Shown piece by piece: positions 22,558 through 29,048 of a stretch of DNA of 29,841 nucleotides. Each line of letters opens with the position of its first letter. The first letter of the stretch is position 1. The DNA comes from Clostridia bacterium (lineage in GTDB: Bacteria > Bacillota > Clostridia > Oscillospirales > Acutalibacteraceae): NCBI GenBank assembly GCA_017939855.1, contig JAGAZW010000255.1:1-29841 (forward strand), given 5' to 3'. Both the position numbers and the translations under genes were made by a program. A model generated the notes under the pieces. It did no database searches and had not been told where the DNA came from. It saw only the letters and a program-made list of their open reading frames with translations.

Positions 22558-23931
22558 ATGAAACATATCGACATTTATGAAATTTTAGATGGCAAATATA
22601 CAGAGCAAAAAGTGACCGTTTGCGGATGGGTGCGTACTTCTCGTGATTCTAAAAATATGGCATTTTTAGAGCTGAACGACGGCACTAGCTTAAAGCATCT
22701 TCAGATAGTTATTGACAAGGCGGTTTTAAGTGAAATTTCGGAATTTATGAAGCTGGGCACCTCCTTAAAGGTGGAGGGTACGGTTGTAAAGTCTGTGGTA
22801 GCACAGGACAGCTTTGAAGTAAATGCTGAAAATATCGAGGTTTTAGGCAAGTGTGACGCAGAATACCCGCTGCAGAAAAAACGCCATACGCTTGAGTATC
22901 TTCGCACAATGCCCGCTTTGCGAGTGCGAACAAATACTTTTAATGCAGTATTTCGTGTACGCTCGGTTGTATCTGCCTGTATTCACGAGTTCTTTCAGAA
23001 AAGAAGATATACCTATATTCATACACCCCTTATTACCGCTTCCGACTGTGAAGGTGCTGGTGAAATGTTCAGGGTAACGACCCATGGCTTTAACACCGAG
23101 TTTAAAACCGAGGAGGAATATAATGCGGCAGATTTCTTTGGAAAAAAGGCTGCCCTTTCGGTTTCGGGTCAGTTAGAGGGCGAGGTAGCTGCAATGGCGC
23201 TCGGCAAGATTTATACCTTCGGACCCTCCTTCCGTGCAGAAAAAAGCAACACCCCACGTCACGTAGCGGAATTTTGGCATGTTGAACCGGAGGTCGCTTT
23301 TGCAGAACTCCCCGATATAATCGAAATAGCACAGGACCTTATTAAGCATATAATAAATACAGTTCTTAATGAATGTGCTCAGGAGCTGAAATTCTTTGAT
23401 GCGCATTTTGAAAAGGGACTTATCGAAAAGTTAAAATCTGTTGTCTCTAATAATTTTGCGGTTATGACCTACACAGAGGCTATCGAAAAGCTGCTCGAAA
23501 GCGGTGAAAAATTCCAATATCCTGTAGAATGGGGTTGTGACCTTATGACCGAGCATGAGCGCTATATATCTGAGGTCATATGTAAGCGTCCTGTTTTCTT
23601 GACAGATTATCCTAAGGAAATAAAGTCCTTTTATATGAAGCAGAATACCGATGGCAAAACAGTTGCCGCAACCGACCTTTTAGTACCTGGAGTAGGCGAA
23701 ATTATTGGTTGCAGTGAGCGTGAAGCAGACCTCGATAAGCTGCTTGAGGCTATGAAGGTAAGGGGTATGAATATAGACGATTATAATGATTATATCGCTC
23801 TTCGTCGTTTCGGCTCGGTTCCTCATAGTGGTTTCGGTTTAGGACTTGAAAGAATGATTATGTATGTGACAGGAGTTCAGAATATACGTGATGTTATTCT
23901 CTATCCGAGGACGGTAGGAACCATATCGTAA
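22558..23931 (+). CDS. asnS: Asparagine--tRNA ligase
   Basis: VCGWVRTSR, LQKKRHTLEYLR, SDCEGAGEMF, FRAEKSNTPRHVAEFW, PHSGFGLGLER. Confidence 0.96.
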   Translation: MKHIDIYEILDGKYTEQKVTVCGWVRTSRDSKNMAFLELNDGTSLKHLQIVIDKAVLSEISEFMKLGTSLKVEGTVVKSVVAQDSFEVNAENIEVLGKCDAEYPLQKKRHTLEYLRTMPALRVRTNTFNAVFRVRSVVSACIHEFFQKRRYTYIHTPLITASDCEGAGEMFRVTTHGFNTEFKTEEEYNAADFFGKKAALSVSGQLEGEVAAMALGKIYTFGPSFRAEKSNTPRHVAEFWHVEPEVAFAELPDIIEIAQDLIKHIINTVLNECAQELKFFDAHFEKGLIEKLKSVVSNNFAVMTYTEAIEKLLESGEKFQYPVEWGCDLMTEHERYISEVICKRPVFLTDYPKEIKSFYMKQNTDGKTVAATDLLVPGVGEIIGCSEREADLDKLLEAMKVRGMNIDDYNDYIALRRFGSVPHSGFGLGLERMIMYVTGVQNIRDVILYPRTVGTIS

Positions 23932-23943
23932 AGGGAGGCAGTT

Positions 23944-24933
23944 ATGGAAAGATATATTTCAAAGCTGGATATTCTTGAAACACAGAGTGCAATAAAGATA
24001 TTGCGTCACCGTTTCGAAGATGAATTGAGTGCGGCTCTTAATCTGAGCCGTGTTTCAGCACCTCTTTTTGTTAAAAAGGGAAGTGGACTCAACGACGATT
24101 TAAACGGTGTTGAACGCCCAGTTTCTTTCGATATTGCCGAAACGGGTGAGGTTGTTGAGGTAGTTCATAGTCTTGCTAAGTGGAAAAGAATGGCATTGGC
24201 AGAATATGATGTTCGGTTAGGCTCGGGTATCTATACCGATATGAATGCTATTCGTCGTGACGAAAAATGCGATAATATTCACTCTCTTTATGTAGACCAG
24301 TGGGATTGGGAAAAGGCAATTTCAAAGGAAGACAGAAATGTTGAGTATCTTAAAAATACAGTAAGAGATATTTATGCAGCGATTTTAAAAGTCGCCGATG
24401 AGATAGAGCAGAAATACCCGACACTTGATAACTATCTACCGCAAGAAATTGCTTTTATAACCTCTCAGGAGCTTGAAGATAAATATCCTTCCCTTTCCTC
24501 CAAAGAAAGAGAAAATGCAGTGGCTAAGGAATATGGTGCAGTATTTTTAATGCAGATAGGCTCAAAGCTGAAAAGCGGCAAAAAGCATGATGGCAGAGCC
24601 CCCGATTATGACGATTGGTCCTTAAACGGTGATATCCTTGTGTATAACAGAGTTTTAGACGCATCCTTTGAGCTTTCCTCAATGGGAATAAGGGTAGATA
24701 AAAATACCCTTATGCGCCAATTGCAAGAAGAATCTGCCCAAGAAAGATTAACACTACCTTTCCATAAAGCATTAATGGAGGATAAGTTGCCACTATCAAT
24801 AGGCGGTGGTATAGGTCAGTCAAGGCTTTGTATGTTGCTGCTGCATAAGCTTCATATAGGTGAAGTGCATGTATCTGTCTGGCCTGAAGCCGAAAGAAAG
24901 CGCTGCGAAGAATTAGGTATTAAGCTGTTATAA
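23944..24933 (+). CDS. asnA: Aspartate--ammonia ligase (asparagine synthetase A)
   Basis: LNDDLNGVERPVSF, VHSLAKWKR, YVDQWDWEK, HDGRAPDYDDW, IGGGIGQSRL. Confidence 0.96.
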   Translation: MERYISKLDILETQSAIKILRHRFEDELSAALNLSRVSAPLFVKKGSGLNDDLNGVERPVSFDIAETGEVVEVVHSLAKWKRMALAEYDVRLGSGIYTDMNAIRRDEKCDNIHSLYVDQWDWEKAISKEDRNVEYLKNTVRDIYAAILKVADEIEQKYPTLDNYLPQEIAFITSQELEDKYPSLSSKERENAVAKEYGAVFLMQIGSKLKSGKKHDGRAPDYDDWSLNGDILVYNRVLDASFELSSMGIRVDKNTLMRQLQEESAQERLTLPFHKALMEDKLPLSIGGGIGQSRLCMLLLHKLHIGEVHVSVWPEAERKRCEELGIKLL

Positions 24934-25385: not shown

Positions 25386-26819
25386 ATGGCAAATGAAAAA
25401 ATGGTGAAAGCAATAACCTCAATGGAGGAAGATTTTGCGAAGTGGTATACCGATGTTTGTATAAAGGCAGAGCTTGTTGACTATTCGTCGGTTAAGGGCT
25501 GTATGATAATCCGGCCATACGGTTATGCAATATGGGAAAACATTCAAAGGATAATGGACGACCATTTTAAACAAACAGGACATGAGAATGTTTATATGCC
25601 TATGTTTATTCCCGAGAGCCTTTTGCAAAAGGAAAAGGATCATGTTGAAGGATTTGCTCCGGAGGTTGCCTGGGTGACTCACGGAGGGGATGAGAAGCTG
25701 GAGGAGCGTCTTTGCGTACGTCCTACCTCCGAAACCTTGTTTTGCGACCATTTTAAAAATATAGTTCATTCATATAGAGATTTGCCAAAGCTTTATAATC
25801 AGTGGTGTAGTGTTGTGCGTTGGGAGAAAACTACACGTCCTTTCCTGCGTTCTCGAGAGTTTTTGTGGCAGGAGGGTCATACTCTCCACGCAACCGCCGA
25901 GGAGGCAAAGTTAGAAACCGAGCAAATGCTTAATGTTTATGCTAAGGTTGCAGAGGAATATTTTGCAATGCCGGTAGTAAAGGGTCAGAAGACCGAAAAA
26001 GAGCGTTTTGCAGGAGCTGAGGCTACCTATACCATTGAAGCTTTAATGCACGATGGCAAGGCTCTGCAAAGCGGCACATCCCATTATTTCGGTGATGGTT
26101 TTTCACGTGCATTTGATGTATGTTATACAGATAAGGATAATAAACCTGTTCATCCTTTCCAGACTTCATGGGGTACCACTACTCGTCTTATTGGTGCTGT
26201 TATTATGACTCATGGCGATGATAATGGTCTTGTTCTTCCACCTGCGATTGCTCCGATTCAGGTGGTTGTCGTTCCGATTGCCTCGCATAAACCGGGAGTT
26301 AATGAAAAGGCTGAGGAAATTTATGAAACGCTCAAAAAGGTAAGCAGAGTCAAACTCGACAACTCCGACCAGTCTCCCGGATGGAAATTTGCCGAATATG
26401 AAATGAAGGGCGTACCGCTTAGAATCGAGATAGGTCCCAGAGATATCGAAAACGGCTGCTGTGTTGTTGTTCGCAGAGACAACAGGGAAAAGATCGTTGT
26501 CGCTCTCAGTGAATTGGAAACTAAAATTCCCGAGCTTTTAAAGGCTGTCAGAGATGGTCTTTATGAAAAGGCTCTTGAGCGCAGAGCAAATATGACCTAT
26601 GATGTTAAAACTCTCGACGAAATGAAAAAAAACGCCGACGAAAAGCCAGGGTTTATCAGAGCTATGTGGTGCGGCGACAGAGAGTGTGAGGATAAATTGA
26701 AGGAAATTTGCGGCGTAACCTCTCGTTGTATTCCTTTCGAGCAAGACAAGATTTCAGATACCTGTGTTTGCTGCGGCAAAAAAGCTGATAAAATGCTCTA
26801 TTGGGGCAAAGCATACTAA
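25386..26819 (+). CDS. proS: Proline--tRNA ligase, archaeal/eukaryotic type (no INS editing domain, C-terminal Cys cluster)
   Basis: [38 protein letters not shown]; C-terminal CGDREC...RCIPF...CVCC and terminal KAY. Confidence 0.96.
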
Positions 26820-26879: not shown

Positions 26880-28070
26880 TTAGTCGGTCATATTATCGAA
26901 GTAACCCTGAACAAGTATAACAGGTGTTCCCTTATCGCCCGAGCCGCTTGTGAGGTCGCATAGCGAACCTATAAGGTCGGTGAGTCTTCTGGGGGTAGTT
27001 CCCTGAGACGCCATATTGCCCACAAGGTCACTGCCCTTTTCCTTGATAGCGTTTTCGATAGCCTCCTTGAGCTCTTCACCCTTAAGGTCAGCAAAATCGT
27101 TATCTGCAAGATATTTGAGCTTGAGCTCGTTTGGCGTACCCTCTAAGCCCTTAGTGTAGGCGGGGGAAACAACAGGGTCTGCCAACTCCCAAATTTTACC
27201 AACAGGATCCTTAAAGGCACCGTCACCATACACCATAACCTCAATATTCCTGCCCGAACGCTTCAAAAAGCTCTCTTGAATGGTGTTTACAAGGTCAAAG
27301 CAGTCCTGAGGGAATAGCTTTACGGTGTTTTCGGTGGATTTATTGGAGCCCAACAAACCGTATTTTGAGTTAAAACCGCTACCGGATATGGATTCGTTTA
27401 GTATCTCGTCGAGACCTACAACACGTTTTGCACCTGCTGCACGTAAAATACGCTTTGTACGTGCACGGGAATGGATATCGCAGTTTAATACATTGTCGGT
27501 GTAATTGAGGATAACTCTCGGGTCATTAGCTAAAATAATTTCAGCTTCTGCGCCGCAGGAACGGATAAGGTCACCATAATATTTGATGTAGTCAACACCT
27601 GTGAACGGATGAGGATTTTCACCGAACAATTCACGATATTTTGCTTCGGTCAATATATCTGAATAGGGGTTAATACCTGCTTCGTCTAACTGATCAAGGG
27701 AAACCAAAGCGTTACCCACTTCGTCACTGGGGTAGTTAAGCATAAGCACTATCTTTTTGGCGCCCATAGCTATGCCACGTAGACAAATAGCAAAACGATT
27801 TCGGCTTAAAATGGGGAATATAACACCTATAGTCTCGCCGCCGAGCTTTGTCTTAACGTCTTGAGCAATTGCATCAACCGACGCATAATTTCCCTGAGCA
27901 CGTGCAACAACAGATTCTGTTACTGCTACTACATCACGGTCACGAAGCTCAAAGCCTTCGTACTCTGCCGCTTCTATAACGCTGTCAACAACAATAGCAG
28001 CGATGTCGTCTCCCTCACGGATAATAGGGCATCTGATGCCACGAGATATTGTACCTACTTTTCTTGCCAT
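26880..28070 (-). CDS. CofE-like (coenzyme F420-0:gamma-glutamyl ligase family) protein, enlarged, true substrate unknown
   Basis: GIRCPIIREGDDIA, DRDVVAVTESVVARAQG, GLLGSN...KLFPQD, LTDLIGSLCDLTSGSGDKGTPVILVQG match CofE blocks; GGAGG RBS. Confidence 0.82.
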   Translation of the reverse strand: MARKVGTISRGIRCPIIREGDDIAAIVVDSVIEAAEYEGFELRDRDVVAVTESVVARAQGNYASVDAIAQDVKTKLGGETIGVIFPILSRNRFAICLRGIAMGAKKIVLMLNYPSDEVGNALVSLDQLDEAGINPYSDILTEAKYRELFGENPHPFTGVDYIKYYGDLIRSCGAEAEIILANDPRVILNYTDNVLNCDIHSRARTKRILRAAGAKRVVGLDEILNESISGSGFNSKYGLLGSNKSTENTVKLFPQDCFDLVNTIQESFLKRSGRNIEVMVYGDGAFKDPVGKIWELADPVVSPAYTKGLEGTPNELKLKYLADNDFADLKGEELKEAIENAIKEKGSDLVGNMASQGTTPRRLTDLIGSLCDLTSGSGDKGTPVILVQGYFDNMTD

Positions 28071-28088
28071 AAAATTGCCTCCAAGGTA

Positions 28089-28117
28089 TTGAATTTTCTT
28101 ACATTATTAATTATAAT
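28089..28117 (+). promoter_or_regulatory. Putative sigma-A promoter of lysR
   Basis: TTGAAT (28089-28094), 17 nt, TATAAT (28112-28117). Confidence 0.65.
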
Positions 28118-28138
28118 ACAATTACAGTCATTAGTCAA
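28110..28138 (-). promoter_or_regulatory. Putative sigma-A promoter of the CofE-like gene
   Basis: Minus strand TTGACT (28138-28133), 17 nt, TATAAT (28115-28110). Confidence 0.7.
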
Positions 28139-28160
28139 TTAGATAGAACTTACAATAGTA

Positions 28161-28175
28161 ATAAGGTGAGCTTAT
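28161..28175. promoter_or_regulatory. Candidate LysR recognition site (T-N11-A)
   Basis: Palindrome ATAAG-GTGAG-CTTAT, centred about 65 bp upstream of the predicted CofE-like start site and covering the lysR RBS. Confidence 0.7.
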
Positions 28176-29048
28176 ATGAAAACCAAACTTGATTATTATC
28201 GTGTTTTTTATGAAACTGCACGTTTTTCCTCCTTTTCAATTGCGGCAAGACACCTGTATGTGTCTCAATCGGCAATATCACAATGTATAAGTCAGCTGGA
28301 AAAGGATTTGGGTGCTCATCTTTTTGTGAGGTCACGAAGAGGCGTTAGTCTTACAAAAGAGGGTATTCTATTGTTTCAAAAGGTTGAGAATGCTATGCAG
28401 TCTATTGAGCAGGGTGAGACCCTACTTGCACGCCTGCACCATTTGGATAGTGGTTCGCTTATAATAGCGGCAGGCGATACCATAACCGGACAGTATCTAC
28501 TACCTTATCTTGAGCAGTTCCACGAAAATTATCCCAATATACGTATAGAAATGGCCAACTCTTATTCATCGAGAATGCTTCAATGTGTAAAAGAGGGGAA
28601 AGCAGAACTTGCCTTTGTCAACCTACCTGTAACAGACGATGAGCTTTGTATAAAACCTTGCCTTGAGATACATGATATTTTTGTGTGTGGGTCTGAATAT
28701 AGTGCCAAAAAAAGTTACACTTGGAGCGAAATAGCTCAACTGCCCCTTATACTTTTGGAGGAAAATTCAAATTCACGTCGATATATTGACGAAAAATTCA
28801 AAGAAAAGAAAATAATACTCAAACCGCAAATAGAAATGGCGGTACACGACCTTTTAATACGCTTCGCTTCAATTCATTTAGGCGTATCCTGTGTGGTAGA
28901 GGAATTTTCAAAGGAAAGTCTTGACAGCGGTATAATAAAACCTTTAAATCTTAATCCGCCTTTGCCACCGAGAAGTATAGGCTGTGCATATTTGAAGCAT
29001 AACTCTTTGTCTCCAGCCGCAAAAGCCTTCTTGAAGCTTATAAAATAA
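28176..29048 (+). CDS. LysR-family transcriptional regulator
   Basis: N-terminal HTH (FSIAARHLYVSQSAISQCISQLEKDLGAHLFVRSRRGVSLTKEG), 290 aa, divergent from the CofE-like gene. Confidence 0.96.
   Translation: MKTKLDYYRVFYETARFSSFSIAARHLYVSQSAISQCISQLEKDLGAHLFVRSRRGVSLTKEGILLFQKVENAMQSIEQGETLLARLHHLDSGSLIIAAGDTITGQYLLPYLEQFHENYPNIRIEMANSYSSRMLQCVKEGKAELAFVNLPVTDDELCIKPCLEIHDIFVCGSEYSAKKSYTWSEIAQLPLILLEENSNSRRYIDEKFKEKKIILKPQIEMAVHDLLIRFASIHLGVSCVVEEFSKESLDSGIIKPLNLNPPLPPRSIGCAYLKHNSLSPAAKAFLKLIK

Follow-up and report, generated by a model that had tools for sequence, protein, structure and literature searches.

The window analyzed here is one entire contig of 29,841 nucleotides (JAGAZW010000255.1; C215) from a Clostridia bacterium of the Acutalibacteraceae (Oscillospirales; assembly GCA_017939855.1), whose metagenome-assembled genome measures 1.27 Mb and is 88.65% complete. 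It carries a gene for a 396-amino acid (aa) protein related to CofE, the F420-0:L-glutamate ligase, and a divergently transcribed gene for a LysR-family regulator. The reading that we favor, and consider rather probable, is that this protein is a long-form enzyme of the CofE superfamily that joins an amine to a nucleotide-like acceptor, that it has a role in guanine or ammonia nitrogen metabolism and that it is switched by the LysR regulator. The long-form ligase is a real, abundant and mis-annotated variant of the CofE kind, and it probably has a connection with the metabolism of guanine nucleotides or of ammonia nitrogen. The evidence comes from the predicted fold of the protein, from a control region shared with the LysR gene and from a recurrent association with GMP synthases (GuaA) that lack their glutamine amidotransferase (GATase) domain.

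CofE Core and Inserted Domains

The full profile of the F420_ligase family (PF01996, positions 1-218) matched the ligase across aa 11-389 with 194.4 bits against a cut-off of 25. Two CofE blocks, TESVVARAQG at aa 51-60 (with ARAQG at 56-60) and GLLGSN at aa 238-243, are separated by 177 residues, which agrees with the enlarged protein and the interval of about 178 residues described in a first-pass annotation made from the DNA sequence alone. An AlphaFold model was built from an alignment of 31 long-form homologs with identity down to 35%, which also served for identifying motifs, and it reached a predicted local distance difference test (pLDDT) score of 93.4 and a predicted template modeling (pTM) score of 0.89. 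The top Foldseek matches of this model were the CofE structures of Archaeoglobus fulgidus (2PHN, 2G9I and 7ULD), all with a probability of 1.0 and with E-values of 1.9e-7 for 2PHN and about 1e-7 for CofE structures overall. Structural alignment by VIA also placed 2PHN at the top (Z 16.3, root-mean-square deviation 3.2, 172 aligned residues, 19% identity, spanning model residues 6-392), while the next-best match had a Z of 7.2. This ranking of CofE structures by both tools argues that the CofE core is real, as the first-pass annotation had supposed, and the ligase is predicted to have a CofE catalytic core that is interrupted by insertions. In sequence searches, the single ligase sequence found no match in the PDB, the family sequence profile reached the solved CofE structures only at an E-value of 0.38 and a search of the ESM Atlas returned only the long-form family's own clusters; the link of the family to solved CofE structures is thus drawn from the comparison of modeled folds only.

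The larger insertion is modeled as a five-stranded alpha/beta/alpha domain (aa ~77-221) between the first two core motifs, and much of the invariant sequence of the long-form family is found in it. The invariant motifs in the 31-sequence alignment are S89-R-N91-R92, which directly follows the first strand of the insert, D116-E-x-G-N120, H154-P-x-T157, Y161, Y165 and H200-x-R202. This concentration of invariant motifs argues for a ligand-binding role of the insert. F92 of CofE is one of its deazaflavin contacts (PMC10861534). Judged by position in profile alignments rather than by residue-level superposition, the insert appears to replace the stretch of CofE, between the first two motifs, that holds F92. 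The best VIA matches of the insert are universal stress proteins (USP; Z 8.1 and 8.0) together with other HUP/Rossmann-type nucleotide-binding domains (Z of 8 or less). A specific fold identity for the insert was considered and rejected, because a Z of about 8 is generic and because Foldseek with the insert alone found no match at an E-value of 0.001 or below. The first-pass annotation had proposed that roughly 120 inserted residues form a new domain for substrate binding. What stands of this proposal is a discrete, autonomously folding domain with invariant motifs, but the domain is ~145 aa long and has a generic Rossmann/USP-like fold rather than a new one. A further charged helical segment had been described at aa ~312-360, and the model indeed predicts helices at aa 318-325 and 331-344, with low confidence around aa 341-360 (pLDDT 57-72); K317 and K319 of this second insertion are invariant in the same alignment.

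LysR Partner and Shared Control Region

The LysR regulator is a dedicated partner of the ligase, and their pairing is confined to one sub-clade of the ligase family. A neighborhood scan returned 80 loci from species-representative genomes. A divergent LysR gene, whose product is 65-81% identical to that of the window, was found in 53 of the 53 loci that have at least 82% ligase identity and available upstream sequence, at a spacing of 104-341 bp that is mostly 106-108 bp, and none of the other window neighbors recurs at these 53 loci. In a maximum-likelihood tree of the ligases (quick IQ-TREE search), 57 LysR-linked ligases and one copy lacking upstream sequence form a single clade with a Shimodaira-Hasegawa-like approximate likelihood ratio test (SH-aLRT) value of 92, and the LysR pairing is explained by at most two changes on this tree. 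In the window, the ligase gene is monocistronic, with lysR head-to-head 105 bp upstream and proS convergent on the downstream side, the same layout as that read in the first-pass annotation. The regulator contains the two domains of its family (PF00126, 69 bits; PF03466, 118.5 bits).

Conservation of the control region between the two genes far exceeds what the flanking coding DNA (71-78% identity) would lead one to expect, and the flanking genes differ among the loci. Its predicted dyad is located upstream of the -35 element of the putative ligase promoter and just upstream of the ribosome-binding site of lysR, and the -10 block of the ligase promoter is conserved across the 53 loci. The dyad is also interposed between the putative lysR promoter and the start of lysR, as would suit autorepression. 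As read from its sequence, the control region has the textbook arrangement for an autorepressing activator of the LysR type, from which we infer binding and regulation. In this respect the pair resembles known divergent LysR pairs, such as GltC-gltAB and CynR-cynTSX, which are also head-to-head and have a T-N11-A dyad upstream of the -35 element of the target and within the leader of the regulator's own gene; the control region of the window has a length of ~105 bp. Unlike the regulators of such pairs, the LysR of the window scores above the cut-off of no NCBIfam equivalog, the best match reaching 144 bits against a cut-off of 250. The first-pass annotation had placed the ligase under LysR control, a claim with which the conserved pairing and the classic LysR-type box agree; it did not notice that the pairing is confined to one sub-clade, and it missed the wider partner, a gene for a GATase-less GuaA. 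As a whole, its interpretation is borne out in part.

Association with Glutaminase-Less GMP Synthase

Directly downstream of the ligase gene and on the same strand, a GMP synthase gene (guaA) was identified at gaps of 5-60 bp in 15 of the 39 loci without LysR. The encoded proteins matched TIGR00884 with 432-463 bits against a cut-off of 339, and each is thus a true ATP-pyrophosphatase and dimerization half of GuaA. They consist either of ~330 aa without a GATase domain or of ~430 aa with a remnant of it that covers positions 1-76 of the 188-position GATase model; the stretch lost in these ~430-aa paralogs presumably includes the catalytic cysteine. Both major branches of the ligase tree contain ligases paired with guaA, and the hosts belong to several families, the Erysipelotrichaceae among them. 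Breznakia and Neglectibacter possess a normal 512-position guaA elsewhere in the genome, and it is the GATase-less paralog that is located beside the ligase gene. A single NCBI record, P0271 (727 aa), joins a complete ligase (78% identity to that of the window, 99% coverage) to a PP-loop and a GMP_synt_C domain, and may be a natural fusion of ligase and GuaA or else the result of a lost stop codon.

Across genomes, ligase and GATase-less GuaA also vary together. By hand count among 212 genomes of the genus, the GATase domain of GuaA is missing in 127 of the 134 ligase-positive genomes versus 29 of the 78 ligase-negative genomes (odds ratio ~31). Among 201 genomes of the order, likewise counted by hand, the ligase is present in 67 of 102 genomes (66%) with a GATase-less GuaA versus 25 of the other 99 (25%; odds ratio ~5.7); in this tally, an additional GuaA C-terminal copy was taken to lack the GATase domain, which was confirmed for Breznakia and Neglectibacter alone. 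The only GuaA of the window's genome is a GATase-less protein of 326 aa (G000:C148:431-1411, L111), which matched positions 191-512 of NF000848 with 442.6 bits; its gene lies on another contig (C148), where it follows a gene for a GlmS-like protein that has two SIS domains, and no match to the guaA-type GATase domain (TIGR00888) was found in the window's genome. Similarly, of five other genomes with a LysR-linked ligase, four have a GATase-less GuaA only. Within the window's genus, ligase-less genomes have a normal GuaA of 512-537 aa, while ligase-bearing genomes have the GATase-less form.

The frequent partner of the ligase, a GuaA ATP-pyrophosphatase of ~330 aa that stands alone, is like the corresponding unit of the archaeal two-subunit GMP synthetase. 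The difference is that no guaA-type GATase was found in the window's genome and that the upstream gene encodes a CofE-fold ligase. GATase-less GuaA is the commonest family-wide partner of the ligase and apparently older than the LysR partner, and this link points to purine or nitrogen metabolism rather than to an arbitrary inducible small molecule. The co-variation makes a functional tie between the two genes more likely than mere co-regulation of neighbors, although it is no proof of one.

Replacement of glutamine synthetase (GS) by the ligase was also considered and was rejected, as the apparent absence of GS from ligase-bearing genomes, suggested by first tallies, turned out to be an artefact of the E-value cut-off. 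The weak PF00120 matches behind it are GS-III-like proteins of ~700 aa, which stringent cut-offs miss because PF00120 detects them only at about 1e-19 to 1e-21; in the window's genome, the GS-III-like protein is split over two contig ends (G000:C238:737-1690 and G000:C242:1-897). Ligase-less genus-mates have a different type of GS, with PF00120 E-values of about 1e-85 and open frames of ~405 aa. Thus ligase-bearing and ligase-less genomes differ in the type of GS and not in its presence.

Proposed Function and Alternative Explanations

In the mechanism that we propose, the ligase would use a nucleoside triphosphate, by analogy with CofE GTP, and a divalent metal to convert a carboxylate to an acyl phosphate, which would then be joined to an amine, by the same analogy L-glutamate. 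The insert, with its many invariant Arg, His, Asn and Ser residues, would replace the deazaflavin-binding stretch of CofE and bind a different acceptor that may be anionic and is probably phosphorylated or nucleotide-like. This acceptor, or the role of the enzyme, would lie within guanine-nucleotide or ammonia-nitrogen metabolism. The LysR regulator would bind the dyad, repress lysR and activate the ligase promoter on sensing a related metabolite.

Several observations weigh against this proposal. By the tool's own warning, the structural matches of the insert at a Z of about 8 stand at the generic background level; both promoters of the control region are consensus matches only; and the fusion protein P0271, known from one record, is possibly a sequencing artefact. 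In the window, the ligase gene is flanked by lysR and proS and is not adjacent to guaA. The tallies are hand counts, the order tally including the second GuaA copies, and they come from related genomes: the association within the genus looks like a split into two sub-lineages, and it may therefore reflect few independent events. Furthermore, the ligase is missing from 35 genomes of the order that have a GATase-less GuaA, and 25 ligase-bearing genomes have no GATase-less GuaA; among these 25, eight have no GuaA match of any kind, two of the eight being 95-99% complete.

The same observations bear on two other explanations of the guaA association. It is conceivable, if unlikely, that the ligase and the GATase-less GMP synthase make up a system of two proteins that act directly together, the ligase supplying or delivering nitrogen or otherwise enabling GMP synthesis, in which case the ligase would stand in for the lost glutaminase domain and the LysR-linked form would be the same enzyme with a control of its own that responds to nitrogen or purines. 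The order ligase-guaA mirrors the order GATase-ATP-pyrophosphatase of a normal GuaA, the gaps shrink to 5-17 bp in several loci, and the GATase remnant of the ~430-aa forms, the fusion protein, the strong co-variation of the two genes and the distribution of the full-length and GATase-less forms of GuaA within the window's genus all speak for such a partnership. The CofE fold, however, is a ligase fold, for which we know of no amidohydrolase or ammonia-releasing chemistry, and stand-alone GuaA ATP-pyrophosphatase units can use free ammonia, so that a GATase-less GuaA strictly needs no partner. The 35 genomes with GATase-less GuaA alone, the eight ligase genomes without a GuaA match and the unlinked positions of ligase and guaA in the window's genome also count against it. 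That the ligase module replaced the class-I glutaminase domain, such that two enzymes together make GMP or a related compound from another nitrogen donor or by another chemistry of activation, seems to us quite unlikely. We consider it very unlikely that the ligase acts on an unrelated acceptor and that its link to guaA reflects shared regulation, gene-order ancestry or the ecology of an ammonia-rich gut, in which case the gene context would say nothing about the substrate. Each gene does occur alone in many genomes of fair completeness, the association is confounded by relatedness, the guaA linkage is dropped altogether in the LysR-linked clade and other neighbors vary (2-hydroxyacid dehydrogenase with amidohydrolase, EamA or M18 peptidase). 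Yet the tight operon spacing recurs in both major ligase branches and in several families including the Erysipelotrichaceae, a fusion protein exists and, where a normal guaA is kept, it is specifically the GATase-less paralog that adjoins the ligase gene.

Two further explanations assign the ligase to known members of the CofE superfamily. The public annotation pipeline PGAP labels close homologs of the ligase 'coenzyme F420-0:L-glutamate ligase', a name with which the PF01996 match and the CofE fold are in line, but there is next to no chance that the window encodes a genuine enzyme of this function. The NCBIfam CofE equivalogs, with cut-offs in the range of 180-304 bits, cover aa 14-70 only and remain far below these cut-offs (TIGR01916, 38.1 bits versus 180.65; NF009809, 38.4 bits versus 274). 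The genes cofC, cofD, cofG and cofH were not found in the 88.65%-complete genome with PF01983, TIGR01819, TIGR03550 and TIGR03551, and domain searches across the window proteins found no F420- or nitroreductase-related genes, which extends to the genome the lack of F420 context seen by the first-pass annotation. The stretch of the deazaflavin pocket would be replaced by the inserted domain, and the distance of the family profile from the CofE structures (E 0.38) points in the same direction. Judged by these matches, the ligase is not an F420 ligase. It shares with CofE the core fold, the PF01996 match and the collinear motifs TES..QGN, GLLGSN, KL.P, GDG and a C-terminal SGS..TP..G, whereas CofE is a compact single-domain protein of ~250 aa and the 396-aa ligase contains insertions of ~145 and ~45 aa. 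Another enlarged bacterial protein of the CofE family is FbiB of mycobacteria, which consists of an N-terminal CofE-like domain and a C-terminal nitroreductase-like domain. The extra domain of FbiB is C-terminal and binds flavin mononucleotide, whereas that of the ligase is predicted to be Rossmann/USP-like and lies inside the core; the model NF009810 matched the ligase at aa 15-66 only, with 21 bits.

The other known member is CT611/FolC2 of Chlamydia trachomatis, a CofE homolog whose gene belongs to a folate operon and can complement a folC mutant of E. coli (PMC1971073; PMC4161248). It is the one published non-F420 function in the CofE superfamily and an example that the CofE fold can be recruited to another acceptor; like the window ligase, it is a member of this superfamily in an organism without F420. 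We regard it as highly improbable that the window ligase is a polyglutamylase of folate or another pterin of the FolC2 kind, serving as a second folylpolyglutamate synthase beside FolC, in spite of the complementation by FolC2 and of twelve sampled genomes that carry the ligase and in which no FolC scores above the cut-off. The FolC2 model TIGR04132, which represents a short form since it has 241 positions, did not match the ligase at an E-value of 0.01 or below, nor anything in the window's genome at 10 or below. Folate genes were found neither in the window nor among the recurrent neighbors in about 100 related ligase loci. In a hand tally of the 201 order genomes, the ligase is equally frequent with and without FolC (79 of ~171 FolC-positive genomes, 46%; 12 of 29 FolC-negative genomes, 41%), and 17 sampled genomes are without both genes. 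What the window's genome itself retains of folC is a C-terminal fragment of 113 aa, at the edge of a contig (G000:C83:1-342, locus L003), so that a genome-wide family search would wrongly call FolC absent. Replacement of FolC by the ligase was rejected given the lack of a TIGR04132 match, the presence of the folC fragment and the lack of an anti-correlation with FolC. As far as sequence models can tell, the window ligase is not of the FolC2 type, and FolC2 (TIGR04132) is a different, short-form branch, encoded among folate genes in an operon and substituting for a FolC that is missing, whereas the window ligase has no folate neighbors and co-occurs with FolC. A literature search found no paper on the long-form ligase or on a link between CofE and guaA, and the function published for FolC2 is that of this other branch; the first-pass annotation is thus not refuted by an earlier publication on the function of this subfamily.

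Distribution and Mobility

The long-form ligase was found in about half of the sampled order genomes, and a saturating search returned more than 8000 candidate homologs, which is a lower bound. Distant homologs in other phyla include a Woesearchaeota record (P0168). Of 211 genus-mates, only 4 have the LysR-linked type; a type with 68-79% identity and no LysR is present in about 129. Genus-mates are placed at no fewer than three separate points of the ligase tree, and the ligase is unusually conserved, with 76-90% identity across loci that are labeled with several different families; the LysR-linked clade does not follow species. Compared with loci L005-L058, the pair of the window shows 84-90% identity in the ligase and 65-81% in LysR across hosts. 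In genomes with an 84-90% identical ligase, ProRS is only 65-78% identical or this ProRS type is missing. The LysR-ligase unit either moves horizontally or is under unusually strong constraint, and its identity above that of ProRS, together with the scattered genus-mates, suggests horizontal movement of the two-gene unit. The ProRS of the window is of a 477-aa type with a C-terminal ProRS-C_1 domain, and one host of a LysR-linked ligase, G412 (labeled Candidatus Aphodoplasma), is without an ortholog of this type.

Other gene arrangements were also observed around the ligase. In the Lachnospiraceae loci L072 (7191-9505), L077 and L079, the ligase gene is followed by a gene for a D-2-hydroxyacid dehydrogenase, and an amidohydrolase gene is also present in at least two of them; this arrangement is a third recurrent context of the ligase. 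A MerR/TipAS regulator gene lies upstream of the ligase gene in L072, L078 and L079. In another genome (G072; L114:1306-3372), the ligase is part of an open frame of 688 aa with an N-terminal extension of ~290 residues that has no Pfam match and may be a mis-called start or an added domain. A 720-aa open frame of G072 was considered as a ligase-GuaA fusion; this was rejected, as the added part is an unannotated N-terminal extension and the gene that follows encodes an M18 peptidase.

Window, Host Genome and Gene Neighborhood

The coordinates of the features described above are listed in Table 1. The other genes of the window are housekeeping genes and include miaA, a sepF-divIVA cluster, a split transketolase and genes for Ddl, a Mur ligase, ArgRS, NAPRTase, Lon, a class-II aminoacyl-tRNA synthetase (aaRS), AsnA, ACP and ProRS. 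At 22558-24933, the class-II aaRS gene (Asp/Lys/Asn group) is directly upstream of asnA, which encodes an ammonia-dependent asparagine synthetase. Taken together with the GATase-less GuaA, this aaRS-asnA pair fits a metabolism that leans on free ammonia.

Mis-binning of the contig was proposed, since the first three sampled genus-mates had no ligase gene, and was rejected. In 210 of 211 genus-mates, the asnA and proS blocks of the window have a counterpart with a DNA identity of 71-78%, and a ligase of some type is present in 133 of the 211.

Table 1. Features of the ligase locus (window coordinates) and GuaA paralogs at related loci (locus coordinates).
Feature	Position	Strand	Basis
Long-form CofE-fold ligase gene	26880-28070	-	Open reading frame, 396 aa plus stop; PF01996 match
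Second insertion, charged helical segment, aa ~312-356 (~45 residues)	27003-27137	-	Model helices; near C-terminus
Rossmann-like alpha/beta/alpha insert, aa ~77-221 (~145 residues)	27408-27842	-	Folds alone, pLDDT 95.1 (model)
Shared control region, 105 bp	28071-28175		Aligned across 53 species; many columns at least 95% conserved
Putative sigma-70-like promoter into lysR, TTGAAT-17-TATAAT, 10/12	28089-28117	+	Consensus scan
Putative sigma-70-like promoter into ligase gene, TTGACT-17-TATAAT, 11/12	28110-28138	-	Consensus scan; 10 bp beyond dyad
Predicted LysR box of T-N11-A type, dyad CTTA-N9-TAAG	28149-28165		Read from sequence; conserved in 53-locus alignment
lysR, LysR-family regulator, 290 aa	28176-29048	+	HTH_1 and LysR_substrate domains
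proS (ProRS)	25386-26819	+	Convergent, downstream of ligase gene
~430-aa GuaA paralogs	L083:7204-8496 (Breznakia); L060:4288-5577; L074:7278-8588		GATase remnant and intact ATP-pyrophosphatase half

Implications

Annotation pipelines uniformly label the long-form family as F420 ligase, in bacteria without an F420 pathway. Identification of its substrate would correct thousands of annotations and reveal a step that is common in gut and rumen Clostridia. The LysR pair offers a handle on this question, as the ligand of the regulator should be chemically related to the substrate or product of the ligase. The pairing with guaA bears on how nitrogen is handled in the purine synthesis of small-genome anaerobes, and if the ligase is truly a partner of GuaA, the LysR-linked form of the window would represent this module with a separate switch that senses a metabolite.

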